In this document: piece after piece, positions 13,649 through 20,286 of the stretch
Layout: every line of letters begins with the position of its first letter
How positions within the stretch are numbered: the first letter of the stretch is position 1
Virus record (IMG/VR): IMGVR_UViG_2627853983_000005
DNA: 35,939 bases
Reading direction: 5' to 3' (one strand)
Origin: a virus
Lineage: Duplodnaviria > Heunggongvirae > Uroviricota > Caudoviricetes
Position numbers and translations under genes: made by a program
Notes under the pieces: model-generated
Database searches by the model: none
What the model saw: the letters and a program-made list of their open reading frames with translations, nothing else
Told to the model about the DNA's origin: nothing

Positions 13649-13970
13649 GAAACCAGAGCATGCACACACAAAAAAACCGCTTGCCATGCCGCAATCAGTC
13701 AGGTTACATTTCCGCTGCACCTCATAAAACGGGTGCCGGGTTTCGCAGCCTGCTGACTACACAAGCGCACAACCGCGCCAGCGGTTTTTTTGTGCGTACT
13801 GTATTGCCACGTTTTTTTCGCGTCAGAATTATGGCGGGGCGTACGGGGCCGACTTCGGTCGGGCCGGGTTCTTGTGTAGCCGGTACTGCGAACCTCGTAC
13901 GTCTCGCCACCCACAGTTTCGCAGCTCTGGATGGTGAGTTTTCACAACTTACTACACAAGGGGCCACACC

Positions 13971-14645: not shown

Positions 14646-17468
14646 ATGACGGCAGAGTACCTCAGGGACTGGCAACAACCGCGCCACGCAGTGGGGCGTG
14701 AAGGAACGGGGATCCCCGCTCCTGAATCCGCGCTTTCCTCCTGGCTGGATGCCTACCGGGCAGAGAACGAGCGCCGCCAGGAAATGGCTGATGCGGCGTT
14801 CTCAGCCACGCCGCTGGGCAACCTGATTAATAAAAGCCTGGACGCACAGGAAAAACAGGACAAAACCATCACACTGGCAGGAGACGCCAGAAAACAGGCA
14901 CGTGGCGCGGTGGATGAAGCCATGGCCTCGCTGCGCCTGCTGCCGTCCTATCTGCGCGATCCGCTTATTCGCCACCTCTCCTTCCTGCGCAAAAAACAGG
15001 AAGCCGATCGCCGGAAAGGCAAAAAGAGCTGGCAGGCGGAACGCTATGCACGCGGAACCCTGCGCAAAATATTCGAACGTCTGGATAGCACTGACGGACG
15101 CTGGCTGACACCGGGTTATCGCTCCCTTGCCGGACGCGAACGCCTGGACGATTTGCTTTACCTGCCGCAGCTCAACAAACACCAGATACAGACGCTGGCC
15201 ACCATGACGGCGGCGATGTTCAGCAGCACCTTCGAAAAACTCTGCGATGGCTTTGGCGCGACCGATGGCGAGCTGACCATGGATGTAACCCTGAAGGCGT
15301 ATCAGATGCTGGCCCGCATGGCGTTACACCTGCACGCCATGCCTCCACATTATGACGCACTGACAACAGACAAAGACCGGAGGAACGAACCGGACACGGA
15401 GCTGCTGCCGGGCGCAATCCTTCGCCTGACCTGTGCGGAATGGTGGAAACGCAAACTGTGGCTGTTACGTTGCGAGTGGAGAGAAGAACAACTCCGCGCC
15501 GCCTGTCTGGTTTCCAGAAAAACATCACCCTATCTGAGCCAGGACGCGTTAAGCGAGTTTCGCGCACAGCGCGAGAAAACACGCGATTTCCTGAAAAGTT
15601 TCATGCTGGAAAATGAAGACGGGTTCACGATTGATCTCGAGACAGTGTATTACGCGGGAGTAAGTAACCCGGTTCACCGTAAGGCAGAAATGATGGCCAC
15701 CATGAAGGGACTGGAACTTCTGGCCGAAGCCCGTGGCGACAAAGCGGTGTTTCTGACTGTCACCTGCCCGTCAAAATACCACGCCACAACGGAGAACGGT
15801 CATCCGAATCCCAAATGGAACGGGGCCACAATGCGCGACTCCAGCGATTACCTGGTTAACACGTTTTTTGCGGCGGTCCGCAAAAAACTGAACCGCGACG
15901 GCCTGCGCTGGTATGGCATCCGCACGGTGGAGCCTCATCATGACGGCACCGTGCACTGGCATATGATGGTCTTTGCACATCCGGAAGAAATCGACACCAT
16001 TGTGTCCCATACCCGCGATATTGCCATTCAGGAAGACCGCCACGAGCTGGGCAATGATATTACTCCGCGCTTTAAGGTGGAGTATGTCGACGGCTCAAAA
16101 GGCACGCCAACCAGCTACATCGCCACCTACATCGGAAAGAACCTGGACAGCCGCGCCGTGGATGGCATCGACCCGAAAACGGGCAAGCCACGCGTGGACC
16201 ACGAAACCGGAAAATCAATGGCCGAGAGCGTGGAGCGCGCCATCGGCTGGGCGCGCCTTCACCGGGTCCGTCAGTTCCAGTTCTTTGGCATCCCCTCCCG
16301 TCAGGTGTGGCGTGAACTGCGCCGCCTTGCCAGCCAGATGGCACGCAATCCGGAAGGCCCGCAACGGCTGAAAGATGATGCAATGGATGCGGTACTCGCT
16401 GCCGCCGATGCCGGGTGTTTTGCCACCTACATTGAAAAACAGGGTGGCGTGCTTGTTCCACGCAAGGACTACCTGATTCGCACCGCCTACGACCTCGCAG
16501 ATGAGCTGAACGATTACGGCGAACAGAGCGTACAGATTTACGGGATCTGGTCACCACTCATCGGGGAATCCTCCCGTGTGTGCACGCATCCGGATAACTG
16601 GAAGCTGGTAAGACGTAAACCGGAAGCGGAAGACAGCGCCCGCGAAAATGGTTTTGACCTTCAGGGCGGCCCTGCCGCCCCTTGGACTCGTGGCAATAAC
16701 TGTCCCCGTGTACAGGAAACGGACAACAACGGGACAGAACAGCCGGAAGAACGGCCAGCACCGTGGCCGCAGCTCCCTGACGGCGTTGAAGTGAACGAAT
16801 GGATGCGCTCACTGAAACGACACGAACGCCGGGCGCTGATGCGTTCGCTTCGTGACAAACAGGCAAAAAACAGCAGCGATGAAATGCAGAGCTGGACACA
16901 GAGCCGCAAACAGCAGCGGCCTTTGCCTGATAACCACGAATTACTCGCTAAAGAATGGCGGGAGTCTGCTGAATCTCTCGGCCTGCATATCGGTGAACAA
17001 CAGATGCAGCACCTGTTACGGGGCGGCAGTCTGTACGTTGACGGCAGCATCATTGCACCGCAGGGATTTGAAATTGTACGCAAACCGGATACCCGCCCGG
17101 ACAGCCGAATCACGCAGCTCTGGCAGCGCCTGAGCCGTAATCATGGCGTAAGCAGCACGGAGATCCGCCATAACCCGGTCGCCAGCTATCTGGCACAGCT
17201 GGGGGCATCAGACCCTGAAGCCGCCGCACGCCTGGCATCCACACTTCAGCAGGGCCAGAACACCATGAAAACACCCGTTACCGTGCTTTCTGACATGCTG
17301 CGCGCCATCCGCGACGCAGAGCACGCACAGAGAATCAGTGAAACCACTGAACGCGCCAGCCGCAAAGCAGACCTGCTGCGGGGTGGCCTGACCAGTGGAA
17401 ACAAAAAACAGACAGAAACGGGACTTACGAATCCCGTAAATGAGCAAAAAACGCGCAGCGATATATGA
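14646..17468 (+). CDS. A: Rolling-circle replication initiator gpA (HUH endonuclease)
   Basis: HUH motif HHDGTVHWHMMVFAHP and paired-Tyr motif TSYIATYIGKN; 940 aa, about 180 aa longer than recalled P2 A at the C-terminus. Confidence 0.9.
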   Translation: MTAEYLRDWQQPRHAVGREGTGIPAPESALSSWLDAYRAENERRQEMADAAFSATPLGNLINKSLDAQEKQDKTITLAGDARKQARGAVDEAMASLRLLPSYLRDPLIRHLSFLRKKQEADRRKGKKSWQAERYARGTLRKIFERLDSTDGRWLTPGYRSLAGRERLDDLLYLPQLNKHQIQTLATMTAAMFSSTFEKLCDGFGATDGELTMDVTLKAYQMLARMALHLHAMPPHYDALTTDKDRRNEPDTELLPGAILRLTCAEWWKRKLWLLRCEWREEQLRAACLVSRKTSPYLSQDALSEFRAQREKTRDFLKSFMLENEDGFTIDLETVYYAGVSNPVHRKAEMMATMKGLELLAEARGDKAVFLTVTCPSKYHATTENGHPNPKWNGATMRDSSDYLVNTFFAAVRKKLNRDGLRWYGIRTVEPHHDGTVHWHMMVFAHPEEIDTIVSHTRDIAIQEDRHELGNDITPRFKVEYVDGSKGTPTSYIATYIGKNLDSRAVDGIDPKTGKPRVDHETGKSMAESVERAIGWARLHRVRQFQFFGIPSRQVWRELRRLASQMARNPEGPQRLKDDAMDAVLAAADAGCFATYIEKQGGVLVPRKDYLIRTAYDLADELNDYGEQSVQIYGIWSPLIGESSRVCTHPDNWKLVRRKPEAEDSARENGFDLQGGPAAPWTRGNNCPRVQETDNNGTEQPEERPAPWPQLPDGVEVNEWMRSLKRHERRALMRSLRDKQAKNSSDEMQSWTQSRKQQRPLPDNHELLAKEWRESAESLGLHIGEQQMQHLLRGGSLYVDGSIIAPQGFEIVRKPDTRPDSRITQLWQRLSRNHGVSSTEIRHNPVASYLAQLGASDPEAAARLASTLQQGQNTMKTPVTVLSDMLRAIRDAEHAQRISETTERASRKADLLRGGLTSGNKKQTETGLTNPVNEQKTRSDI

Positions 17469-17515
17469 AGCGCGCACAAAACAGGCAAAAACGGGATTTC
17501 AGAATCCCGTAAACG
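17405..17515 (+). repeat. Two ~38-bp direct repeats each containing a hairpin; candidate parC-like centromere or regulatory site
   Basis: AAAACAGRCARAAACGGGAYTTMNGAATCCCGTAAAYGA at 17405-17443 and 17477-17515; hairpin cores ACGGGA...TCCCGT at 17418-17437 and 17491-17510, directly upstream of parM. Confidence 0.45.
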
Positions 17516-17544
17516 ATTAATTAATCAACATAAGGAAAAGCGAC

Positions 17545-18504
17545 ATGAAAATTTGTATCGACGACGGCTCCACCAACATCAAGCTGGCATGGACTGAGAA
17601 TGGCGAACGCCGCAACGCCATCAGCCCGAACAGCTTCAAGTCGGAATGGTCTGCGCCGTTCGGTGGCATGCAGCCCGCGAACTACATGCTTGATGGCGTG
17701 CGCTATGGTTTTGATCCGGTTAGCGATCGCTTTGTCCAGACGACCGACACGCAATACCAGTACAGCGATGTGAATGTAATCGCCATTCATCACGCGCTGG
17801 TCAAATCAGGCATCACGCCACAGGAGGTGGATGTGGTTGTCACCCTGCCACTGAGCGAGTATTTCGACACAAACGCACAGCCGGACATGGCCAACATCAA
17901 CCGCAAAAAAGCGAACGTTATGCGCCCGGTGGAATACCAGAACGGCGAAGCATTCACTATCCGTAACGTGCGGGTTATGCCTGAATCCATTCCGGCTGGC
18001 TTTAAAGCACTGGCTGACATGAGTCCGTTTGAATCCCTGCTGATTGTGGATTTAGGCGGAACCACGCTGGATGTGGCAAAGGTTCAAGGGCAACTGGCAG
18101 GTATCAGCCAGGTGTTTTGCGATCCACACGTAGGCGTTTCCCTGATGGCCGATGCCGTACTGTCGGTGATGGCCACTAACGGTATGCGCACCAGTCACCA
18201 CATCGCCAATACCATTATCGAACATCGCCATGATGAAGCCTGGCTGCGCCAGCACATCCACAATGACGCGCATTACGCCAGCCTGATGGCGGTTATTCGT
18301 GAAAAGGAAGAAACACTGAAACAACGCGTGATCCGCGCGCTGGCGGTTTTTTCGGGTTACGGGCGGGTGATGGTTGTCGGTGGAGGGGCGGAGATTGTGG
18401 CACCCGCTATCCGCGAAGTCTGCGGAGTTAATGCGACTTTCATCGCGGACGGGGTGCCACAGTTTGCTCTGGTTAATGGGCTGTACGCAATGGACAAGGA
18501 GTAA
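17545..18504 (+). CDS. parM: Actin-like segregation ATPase, ParM/StbA family
   Basis: N-terminus MKICIDDGSTNIKLAW...ISPNSFKSEW...YQYSDVNVIAIHHAL matches recalled R1 ParM/StbA phosphate-binding motifs; 319 aa. Confidence 0.9.
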   Translation: MKICIDDGSTNIKLAWTENGERRNAISPNSFKSEWSAPFGGMQPANYMLDGVRYGFDPVSDRFVQTTDTQYQYSDVNVIAIHHALVKSGITPQEVDVVVTLPLSEYFDTNAQPDMANINRKKANVMRPVEYQNGEAFTIRNVRVMPESIPAGFKALADMSPFESLLIVDLGGTTLDVAKVQGQLAGISQVFCDPHVGVSLMADAVLSVMATNGMRTSHHIANTIIEHRHDEAWLRQHIHNDAHYASLMAVIREKEETLKQRVIRALAVFSGYGRVMVVGGGAEIVAPAIREVCGVNATFIADGVPQFALVNGLYAMDKE

Positions 18505-18508
18505 ACCA

Positions 18509-18823
18509 ATGACGACACCAACCAGACGGATAAGTTTCTATCTGAAGCCCGCCGCCGTCAAGAGTGAACAGGAGGCGTGCAATTACCTCGATAGCCTGCC
18601 AGCCTCCGAACGCAGCCGCGCGCAACGCGCGGCCTTTCTGGCTGGGCTAGCGCTCATAAAGCGCAACCCAGCATTTGCCTACTGGATGGCCGAATGGCCA
18701 GAGGACAACCTCCCCTTCAATACCGTTAGCATCAAGGAAACATACCAGGATAATCAGCCTAGCGGAGTTGAATGCAATTTTTATAAAATAAAAAAGAATA
18801 TTCAGACCTTATTCCCAGAATAA
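18509..18823 (+). CDS. parR: ParR/StbB-like centromere-binding adaptor
   Basis: AAGGAG RBS; RRISFYLKP...LDSLPASERSRAQRAAFLAGLALIK resembles recalled R1 ParR ribbon-helix-helix N-terminus; directly downstream of parM. Confidence 0.8.
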   Translation: MTTPTRRISFYLKPAAVKSEQEACNYLDSLPASERSRAQRAAFLAGLALIKRNPAFAYWMAEWPEDNLPFNTVSIKETYQDNQPSGVECNFYKIKKNIQTLFPE

Positions 18824-18906
18824 TCTGATAATTGTATGTGAACTAATAAAATACAGACCAACACATCATTCTGGCACCCTTGCTAACAGGGTGCCAATGT
18901 TTCAAA

Positions 18907-19749
18907 TCATGATGAAATTGCCGAAGTTTTTTTATCGTGCTGAAGTACCGCAAATGCCATTAAAACCTCAAGAGAATAGCGGCGATAATACTTAACAAAA
19001 CCATAATAAAATACTCGGGATGCAGCAATACAAAACAAGAGAAGAAAACAAAAAGGTAACAGTCTGATATTTATATCTATTAAAAAGGATAGAAGGAGCA
19101 GGAACATAAGCAACCAGACTGAAGCGAGAAAAACAAATGTAATGTTTCTACAAAAACCATACAAAGCAACATAGTTTTGCATTTTCACCTGATGATTTTT
19201 AGAATGTTCATACACATAATGATAAGCAAGGCGAAAAAGATCGCCCCTCAAGCCCTTACGTCGATATAGCGTAGATACAGAAAAAACATTTATATAACCA
19301 TCTCGTATTTGCGGCCAAAAGACTTTAATAAGTATAGAATGCAGTGTGGTTTTATGATGTTCTGCTTTATCAAAAGCTGATACAGGAAATAAAAAAACTC
19401 CACGAATAAAATTAACTATACTGAACTTAGTATTATGTCGTTTTATTTTCAGGGAGCTTCTTTTAGAAAACAGATAAATTGAAGGATACCCAAGTTTACT
19501 GTTCATGTATTTTTCAATTAAACAGGATGATAGAATAGATATGAAGTGACCTGAAATATATGATAGAACGATTAATACCACATATATAAATACACTTATT
19601 ATTTCTTTATATTTCAGGATATGGTTAAGAATACCTTCTATATAAACAGGGTTAATTTCAATAGAAAACAAAAAAAGGATAAACAGGAATAACCCACCTG
19701 GAATTAGATAGCCCAAAAAGTCATAAAATGAAAACGGATTCTGTGTCAC
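18907..19749 (-). CDS. Hypothetical integral membrane protein (2 N-terminal and 2 C-terminal TM helices), second gene of AT-rich cassette
   Basis: 280 aa; GTG start with CAGGGGGAAG RBS; very low GC; hydrophobic segments at both ends with a soluble middle. Confidence 0.6.
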   Translation of the reverse strand: MTQNPFSFYDFLGYLIPGGLFLFILFLFSIEINPVYIEGILNHILKYKEIISVFIYVVLIVLSYISGHFISILSSCLIEKYMNSKLGYPSIYLFSKRSSLKIKRHNTKFSIVNFIRGVFLFPVSAFDKAEHHKTTLHSILIKVFWPQIRDGYINVFSVSTLYRRKGLRGDLFRLAYHYVYEHSKNHQVKMQNYVALYGFCRNITFVFLASVWLLMFLLLLSFLIDINIRLLPFCFLLLFCIAASRVFYYGFVKYYRRYSLEVLMAFAVLQHDKKTSAISS

Positions 19750-19788
19750 ACTTCCCCCTGTGTTACTTGTAAATTAAAGGGTAAAACA

Positions 19789-20286
19789 TTATTTGTTTTT
19801 CCGTAAAGGATTAGCTTTCCATCTTCTTACTAACCATTCGAATTCTTGATATGTAGTATCCGAATTAATGCTTTCTCTGATTGCTTTAATTAATGGCTCG
19901 GCAATATCATATGTCTCTACAACTGTTGTGTAAGATGTTCTTTTTATCATTTTTTCATCATAAATACCTTCACGAATACTTACAGCAACTCGCTCGTAAA
20001 AATTTAAAATATATTGAAATTTTCGACGCTCGGCCATTTCTTCATCTGTTATTATGCAACCATCACAAGGAAAAACATAAGAACGAAATGATTTGCCTGA
20101 ACGATGCACTTGTTTCAGGGTATGCAATGACTCTATATATTGCATATCTTGCCGACTCTCAAAAAGAAAGTTGGCCGTTTGAGTTTTTTTTGCGGTACGC
20201 ACATTGTAGATAATGGTTCCAATGGCAACCAAAACGCCAAGCAGAACAATAGCATTGCTGATGATTTGTAGTGTTATTGGGTTCAT
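19789..20286 (-). CDS. Hypothetical single-pass membrane protein, first gene of AT-rich cassette
   Basis: 165 aa; N-terminal TM helix MNPITLQIISNAIVLLGVLVAIGTIIY then soluble domain; weak RBS. Confidence 0.6.
   Translation of the reverse strand: MNPITLQIISNAIVLLGVLVAIGTIIYNVRTAKKTQTANFLFESRQDMQYIESLHTLKQVHRSGKSFRSYVFPCDGCIITDEEMAERRKFQYILNFYERVAVSIREGIYDEKMIKRTSYTTVVETYDIAEPLIKAIRESINSDTTYQEFEWLVRRWKANPLRKNK

Follow-up and report, generated by a model that had tools for sequence, protein, structure and literature searches.

What role can be assigned to a pair of palindrome-bearing repeats that lie, in an integrating phage, between the replication gene and a gene for an actin-like segregation protein? 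The question is raised by the IMG/VR virus record IMGVR_UViG_2627853983_000005, a stretch of 35,939 nt (referred to here as the window) that represents a P88-like prophage of Escherichia coli (Xuanwuvirus, Peduoviridae, P2 family), a 100%-identical relative of which is integrated next to dmsABC. At this locus the P2-type replication gene A is followed by parM and by a gene for a parR-like adaptor, and the two repeats occupy the 3' end of A and the gap before parM (Table 1). An initial annotation, made from the letters of the sequence, had described them as hairpin-containing direct repeats situated where a parC centromere and an autoregulated parM promoter would be expected. As judged from sequence comparison, the repeats probably constitute a parC-type centromere/operator bound by ParR rather than a functional hairpin, a reading that we favour with some reserve and that is weighed below against its alternatives.

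Table 1. Features of the A-parM-parR region (positions refer to the window).
Feature	Position	Strand	Remarks
Gene A, P2-type replication endonuclease	14646-17468	+	940 aa; Pfam Phage_GPA, 4.9e-131; 31% identity to P2 A
GCCCCTTGGACTCGTGGCAATAACTGT, homologue of the P2 ori nick site	16676-16703	+	Inside A; DNA sequence retained in distant P2-like A genes
Array of AAAAC-type A-tracts, 10.5-bp phasing	17399-17525	+	Holds both repeats; proposed full parC-like extent
Repeat 1, 42-nt direct repeat	17402-17443	+	In the 3' end of A; sole direct-repeat family found
Palindrome H1, ACGGGACTTACGAATCCCGT	17418-17437	.	Distal box, about -127 from the parM ATG
Repeat 2, 42-nt direct repeat	17475-17516	+	Non-coding, between A stop and parM start
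AACAGGCAAAAACGGGA, 17-nt block	17480-17496	+	Identical in a Serratia P2-like prophage (ParM 59% identical)
Palindrome H2, ACGGGATTTCAGAATCCCGT	17491-17510	.	Proximal box, about -54 from the parM ATG
ATTAATCAA	17520-17528	+	At -25 to -29 from the ATG; conserved in the Hafnia and Plesiomonas relatives
parM, actin-like segregation ATPase	17545-18504	+	960-nt coding sequence; matches to Pfam and to the R1 ParM structure
parR-like adaptor, 104 aa	18509-18823	+	Pfam PF10784 (Plasmid_stab_B), 7.7e-29

A repeated and phased site upstream of parM

The two repeats are 83% identical and start 73 bp apart, corresponding to about seven helical turns; the repeats and palindromic cores of the initial annotation are thus real, its figures of ~38 bp for their length and 72 bp for their spacing being slightly too low. 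A and parM are co-oriented and separated by 76 nt, and because the stop codon of A is at 17466-17468 and parM only starts after this gap, repeat 1 is coding, as had been proposed, and repeat 2 non-coding, the last 67 nt of A being made up of repeat 1 and part of the spacer. Both palindromes fit the 20-bp pattern ACGGGA-N8-TCCCGT. The arms of H2 are perfect over 8 bp (ACGGGATT/AATCCCGT), and H1 of the window forms six pairs followed by a C.A mismatch at pair 7. With up to one mismatch allowed, the pattern has exactly two matches in the window against 0.06 expected from 100 dinucleotide shuffles, none of which produced two matches or more. In IMG/VR it is found at this junction only: all 107 stretches that carry it represent the same junction, so that the pattern is not a dispersed one. 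A dispersed repeat, such as a repetitive extragenic palindrome (REP) or a miniature inverted-repeat transposable element (MITE), is ruled out by this distribution and by the presence of only two copies in the window.

Each 42-nt unit can be resolved into roughly four phased sub-units, two of which make up the palindrome, and both units are embedded in a longer array of A-tracts. The power of the AAA periodicity at 10.5 bp reaches 1.09-1.26 over this array, the maximum of the window, and is 1.02 for parC of plasmid R1. The array also gives the strongest A-tract signal phased at 10-11.5 bp on either strand of the window, and the top 8 of ~7,000 sliding 127-nt windows, with both strands scanned, all overlap it. 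Intrinsic curvature of this DNA would follow from the phasing. The R1 site itself comprises 159 bp, in which two sets of five 11-bp iterons enclose a 39-bp promoter core (PMC2241845), and it is strongly curved and bound by about one ParR dimer per iteron (Hoischen et al., PMC2241845). Since the A-tract phasing is equally strong in both, the site described here appears to have the physical character of R1 parC. Further similarities are the location directly upstream of parM, the homologous ParM and ParR proteins, and the organization in two clusters of A-rich units, phased at 10.5-11 bp and lying on one helical face; an R1-type parM locus on an IncF plasmid (L007) likewise has two clusters of A-rich 11-bp iterons upstream, and other plasmid cassettes have T-rich iterons. 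The differences from R1 are that the reading frame of A ends within the spacer, in which no promoter can be recognised, that coding sequence makes up half of the site, and that an integrating P2-like phage is the carrier.

Variation at the site was followed in 179 near-identical loci from IMG/VR, which were collected by scanning for the pattern and for ParM. Nucleotide diversity (pi) is 0.018 in the nearly invariant CGGGA/TCCCG cores, highest in the 4-nt loops (0.14) and intermediate in the spacer (0.047), with a value of 0.029 for four-fold degenerate sites of the flanking genes. This contrast of cores and loops is the same in non-coding H2 and in coding H1. The H1 haplotype of the window is rare (4/179), the commonest being ACGGGATTCACAAATCCCGT (73/179), with perfect 8-bp arms, and the C/T polymorphism at 17424 makes a residue of the A protein's C-terminal tail either Leu or Phe. 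Over a much larger evolutionary distance, the 17-nt block that is shared with the Serratia prophage equals in length the longest exact block that the parM coding sequences of the two have in common.

The par cassette and its diverged relatives

A ParM gene, a parR gene directly downstream and a repeated cis site upstream of parM, which are among the features of a type II (ParMRC) partition locus, are all found here. ParM of the window matches the Pfam families StbA_N (2.7e-82) and ParM C-terminal (1.1e-68) as well as the structure of R1 ParM (1mwk, E 1.1e-92), and is 46.5% identical to the R1-type ParM of L007. ParR is 40% identical to R1 ParR over the N-terminal 63 aa (BLASTP, E 4e-16), and the only solved structure that it matches, weakly and in its N-terminal part, is that of pB171 ParR (2jd3, residues 6-57, E 0.012). 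The ParR alleles of P88-like prophages share 39-100% identity and have a hypervariable middle or linker region; nevertheless, the segment RRISFYLKP (residues 6-14) is invariant among them and a C-terminal NI..(L/F)FP is kept, in agreement with the K/N-N-I-x-x-L/F-F-P tail common to plasmid ParRs. In the R1 system, this C-terminal tail of ParR binds ParM. A low-confidence structural model of ParR, in which an extended N-terminus precedes helices at residues 20-29 and 37-52 (and 54-61) and a further helix lies at the C-terminus beyond a disordered linker, has a topology compatible with a ribbon-helix-helix N-terminus. An invariant strand that presumably reads DNA is found together with nearly invariant boxes, as would fit boxes read by ParR. 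As an aside, the 3' two-thirds of parR (18563-18823) are far more variable among P88-like prophages than parM or the upstream site, with alleles going down to 39-50% identity at the protein level, and many megablast matches, among the rows sampled, end near 18563.

With regard to the integrity of the cassette, 157 of the 160 related loci have an intact parM, whose ratio of nonsynonymous to synonymous polymorphism (pN/pS) is ~0.16, and the cassette is therefore maintained by purifying selection. A relic or pseudogene cassette is ruled out by the same figures.

ParM homologues with 54-62% identity are encoded on contigs of Hafnia, Plesiomonas, Serratia and Enterobacter, all of them from P2-like prophages in which parM-parR lies between A and the portal gene, and a genome scan yielded more. 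In a neighbour-joining tree, all ParMs linked to gpA, the product of A (Escherichia, Hafnia, Plesiomonas, Serratia, Enterobacter), fall into one clade separate from plasmid ParMs, which argues for a single, old acquisition. Two of these loci are informative as to which gene the repeats belong to: in the Hafnia locus (L196) a 167-aa open reading frame (ORF) separates A from parM, in the Enterobacter locus (L200) a methylase gene and a 71-aa ORF do so, and in both the repeats are still found directly upstream of parM. Because the repeats stay with parM when A is separated from it, these cis elements belong to the par module and not to A.

This behaviour also bears on the idea that the A protein recognises the repeats as the replication origin or as a part of it. 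Repeat 1 is indeed situated within the 3' end of A, P2-type origins being located in the 3' part of this gene, and initiators of the HUH type often nick at hairpins. However, in the P2 record the nick is at residue 620 of A, and the homologous block of the window lies ~730 nt upstream of the repeats, which, in L196 and L200, stay with parM and not with A. We consequently give this idea almost no credence, and the presence of the nick-site homologue elsewhere in A rules it out for practical purposes; that homologue, as judged from its conservation, is likely to be the origin of this phage, and 16662-16723 is the only part of a 2.5-kb query that matches Klebsiella P2-like phages, among the matches listed.

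The two-box architecture is present in most of the phage ParM clade. In the gpA-linked lineages the distal boxes are at -110 to -133 and the proximal ones at -38 to -61 from the ATG, and the spacings of 73, 72, 84 and 83 bp in the window, Plesiomonas, Serratia and Enterobacter correspond to seven or eight helical turns. The boxes themselves differ among lineages. Plesiomonas has two direct repeats of the GCGGGACAAC... type, 72 bp apart and all but devoid of a palindrome; in Serratia and Enterobacter, AAA(C/T)GGGAAC is found beside inverted GAAATAGAAAAAT arms, with a second box, AAACGGC, 83-84 bp downstream; and in Hafnia AAACGAAC occurs twice, 11 bp apart. When up to one mismatch is allowed, AAACGGGA shows a modest upstream enrichment in independent loci (P ~0.02). 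The right arm of the palindrome is limited to the P88 group, this palindrome being lost in the Hafnia, Plesiomonas, Serratia and Enterobacter loci. The left half-site and its A-tract flank persist in these relatives as primary sequence, and are thus older than the palindrome.

Several observations weigh against a parC-type centromere. R1 parC consists of two sets of five direct 11-bp iterons, whereas the site described here consists of two 42-bp repeats around 20-bp palindromes. In Serratia and Enterobacter, the most obvious repeats are the inverted GAAATAGAAAAAT arms, which resemble the iterons of IncL/M and IncF plasmids, and because these arms stand out, the CGGGA box may be part of the site only; in addition, AAACGGGA at up to one mismatch was not found in L196 and L198. 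The AlphaFold2 monomer of ParR has a mean predicted local distance difference test (pLDDT) score of 57.8, that is, a low one. No sigma-70-like promoter was found upstream of parM in the window and four relatives by a scan that also misses the known R1 promoter, the same scan finding clear promoters in IncL/M and IncF cassettes. Finally, 1,442 of the 1,444 places occupied by the cassette in complete E. coli genomes are chromosomal, and since nearly all copies are so located, a partition system would only transiently have an element to serve. In favour of the centromere are the R1-type parMR genes downstream, the boxes travelling with parM, the R1-like phasing and the invariant ParR strand. Of the initial proposal it is the parC part that is supported by the sequence comparisons, whereas no support was obtained for the hairpin part nor, in a scan that also misses the R1 promoter, for an autoregulated parM promoter. 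The bases read by ParR would be either the CGGGA boxes or the A-tract units.

Pairing, termination and transcription at the junction

If the palindromes were to act as hairpins, they could do so in two ways. On the + strand, they might form in a polycistronic A-parM-parR mRNA, as processing or stabilising elements or as a means of tuning the translation of parM relative to that of A. A and parM are indeed co-oriented, close to each other and without an intervening + strand terminator or a clear promoter; the repeat region folds better than shuffled sequences (z = -3.7); and the two common variants of the H2 arms (17491 A>G and 17508 C>T) leave the positions concerned paired, as G.U, on the + strand. 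The low folding energy, however, follows trivially from the presence of two copies of a palindrome. Moreover, no haplotype contains a compensatory double change, in a covariation check that has little power with 179 near-identical loci, and 85 of the 179 have a mismatch at pair 7 of H1, other H1 variants also breaking pairs; there is, in consequence, no positive sign of selected pairing. To this can be added the loss of the palindrome in the four diverged genera, where the left half-site is kept as primary sequence, and the fact that Rfam 15 gives no match in 17300-17650 at E values up to 1. We regard mRNA hairpins as unlikely, and the hairpins of the initial annotation, mismatched as they often are and without their right arm in distant relatives, are better read as paired inverted half-sites for a protein.

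On the opposite strand, the hairpins might be intrinsic terminators for leftward transcripts that pass through parR and parM, thereby shielding gene A. The absence of a trailing T-run, noted initially as an argument against terminators, is correct for the + strand, on which the form of an intrinsic terminator is lacking, and not for the - strand, on which both hairpins have T-rich tails (TTTTGCCTGT and TTCTGTCTGT) behind 8-bp stems and were flagged as terminator-like. Small G+C-rich palindromes with - strand T-tails are also present upstream of parM in L199 and L200. Nevertheless, these tails simply mirror the phased A-tracts on the other strand and are broken up, with 4 and 2 consecutive T, so that the - strand form is marginal; the leftward cargo genes already end at 18907, with a stem-loop at 18872-18896 between them and parR; terminators do not normally keep a 17-nt block of primary sequence at 59% ParM identity; and two of them, 73 bp apart and with conserved direct-repeat flanks, would not be expected. 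Termination of leftward transcripts is thus very unlikely to be what the repeats are for. The stem-loop just mentioned (9 bp, TGGCACCCT-TGCTAAC-AGGGTGCCA) lies between the parR stop codon and the end of the convergent leftward gene, and probably marks the end of the par transcript; a terminator scan did not call it, and its T-run is weak.

As to initiation, parM may have a promoter of its own, and read-through or co-transcription from A is at least as likely. The sole candidate for a promoter element is ATTAATCAA, possibly a weak -10 or a leader element. The dyad of P2 late promoters (TGT-N12-ACA) and the consensus sequences for DnaA, CRP and IHF were not found, in a comparison made by eye only. 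Because the cassette follows A in the same orientation, without a + strand terminator or a clear promoter in between, it is probably expressed together with the early (replication) operon.

Proposed partition on an integrating phage

P2-family phages replicate as monomeric circles. For the phage described here, a mechanism can be proposed in which ParR dimers, presumably of the ribbon-helix-helix type, would bind the CGGGA boxes together with the flanking AAAAC-type units, these being phased at 10.5 bp over ~120 bp and grouped in two clusters that are separated by seven turns (73 bp) and lie on the same side of presumably curved DNA. ParM filaments would next be captured through the conserved C-terminal tail of ParR, and would drive circular copies of the phage genome away from each other once infection or excision has taken place. 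ParR bound at H2, about 35-54 nt before the ATG, may also modulate expression. What the sequences show is the layout of the locus, the homology of ParM and ParR, a conserved and phased site and the linkage of this site to parM and not to A; ParR binding, partition activity and the timing of expression are inferred. More tentatively still, and with somewhat greater doubt than confidence, it can be suggested that a sublineage of the P2 family, by now found in at least five enterobacterial genera, has long kept a dedicated actin-like segregation machine with a compact two-box centromere, part of which overlaps the gene for the replication initiator, and that this machine acts on infecting or excised circles, and not on a plasmid prophage, so as to separate or position them.

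The position of H2 is also where an operator would be expected, and the boxes might be an operator only, or the site of another phage or host regulator (Cox-type direct repeats one helical turn apart, for instance), with no centromere role. This would agree with the integrated state of nearly all copies, which seems to leave little for a centromere to act on, and with the binding of recombination directionality factors such as Apl to direct repeats one turn apart (PMC7498355). On the other side, parMR is accompanied by the boxes in every lineage, irrespective of the upstream genes; an intact ParM and an intact ParM-binding tail of ParR, kept by purifying selection, are hard to explain if the cis site had no segregation role; and in R1 a single stretch of DNA serves as operator and as centromere (PMC2241845). 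An operator without a centromere is thus improbable, and the centromere/operator remains the preferred reading.

Similar systems are known from other elements that are not typical plasmids. In the SXT/R391 family of ICEs (integrative and conjugative elements), srpC consists of four short direct and inverted repeats, located upstream of the gene for an actin-like protein and bound by SrpR, and the system stabilises the excised form (PMC4489591). Here, too, a type II partition system resides on an element that is normally chromosomal, although SrpR has no detectable similarity to ParR and the carrier is an ICE replicating from oriT and not a phage. In the Corynebacterium prophage CGP3, the AlpAC/alpS system combines an actin-like protein, a DNA-binding adaptor and specific DNA sites, and is needed for viral DNA to be replicated and transported efficiently (PMC4446434, PMC5539076); it shares with the present system a prophage-encoded actin-like protein, an adaptor and specific DNA sites, and differs in its actinobacterial host and in the unrelated adaptor and sites. 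The P1-like phage-plasmid D6 encodes a StbA/ParM protein with 47.8% identity to that of the window and is the only other phage with this ParM family in a collection of 50,697 records; D6, however, exists as a plasmid prophage, where partition genes would be expected, whereas P88-like phages integrate. Literature searches turned up no described function for the parMR genes of P88-like or P2-like phages, and up to now it is only in the SXT/R391 ICEs and in prophage CGP3 that the role of a partition machine on an integrating element has been addressed.

The repeats are, in this respect, an expected part of a recognisable cassette, and what is unusual is the carrier, a very common integrating phage. 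Of 5,426 complete E. coli genomes, 1,304 (~24%) contain the parMR cassette, repeats included, with O157:H7 and ST131 strains among the carriers, and the annotation "plasmid segregation protein ParM" in an E. coli chromosome usually marks this prophage and not a plasmid remnant. If ParR binds the boxes, a centromere would be defined for a ParMRC subfamily of integrating P2-like phages instead of plasmids, and the four CGGGA half-sites would offer a small handle on the role of a partition machine in an integrating phage. Should the machine act on phage circles, the frequency of lysogenisation, curing or burst size would be affected; should the cassette leak in lysogens, it would act on the chromosomal copy of parC in those ~24% of complete genomes.

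Some further observations were made on carriers of the cassette. The record NZ_CP148288.1, a circular "plasmid" of 34,461 bp in a complete assembly of E. coli Z1323PEC0009, is the whole genome of a P88-like phage, including the integrase and the par cassette, and is due either to a phage that is excised and replicating or to a state like that of a plasmid; it shows that an abundant episomal form is possible and is no proof of plasmid maintenance. Four loci in records titled Vagococcus sp. (L203), Streptomyces morookaense (L230), Clostridiales (L231) and Lachnospiraceae (L245) contain enterobacterial parMR cassettes, the first of them with a ParM 97% identical to that of the window and a P88-like A gene, and are probably due to contamination or mis-binning.

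Between parR and the portal gene, where P2 has tin and old, two leftward cargo genes are located on the - strand (18907-20286). The product of one is a multi-pass membrane protein of 280 aa that weakly matches Csx27 in PADLOC (E 1.1e-5), that of the other a DUF4760 protein, and the same position is occupied in relatives by HicAB, a KAP NTPase or a DUF3800 protein. In the early region of this P2-like prophage, matches to the Hfq-binding RNA isrK (13717-13791, + strand, 65 bits) and to the C4 antisense RNA (13827-13914, + strand, 83 bits), both reported by Rfam at its gathering score, constitute an immunity RNA pair of the P1/P7 type.

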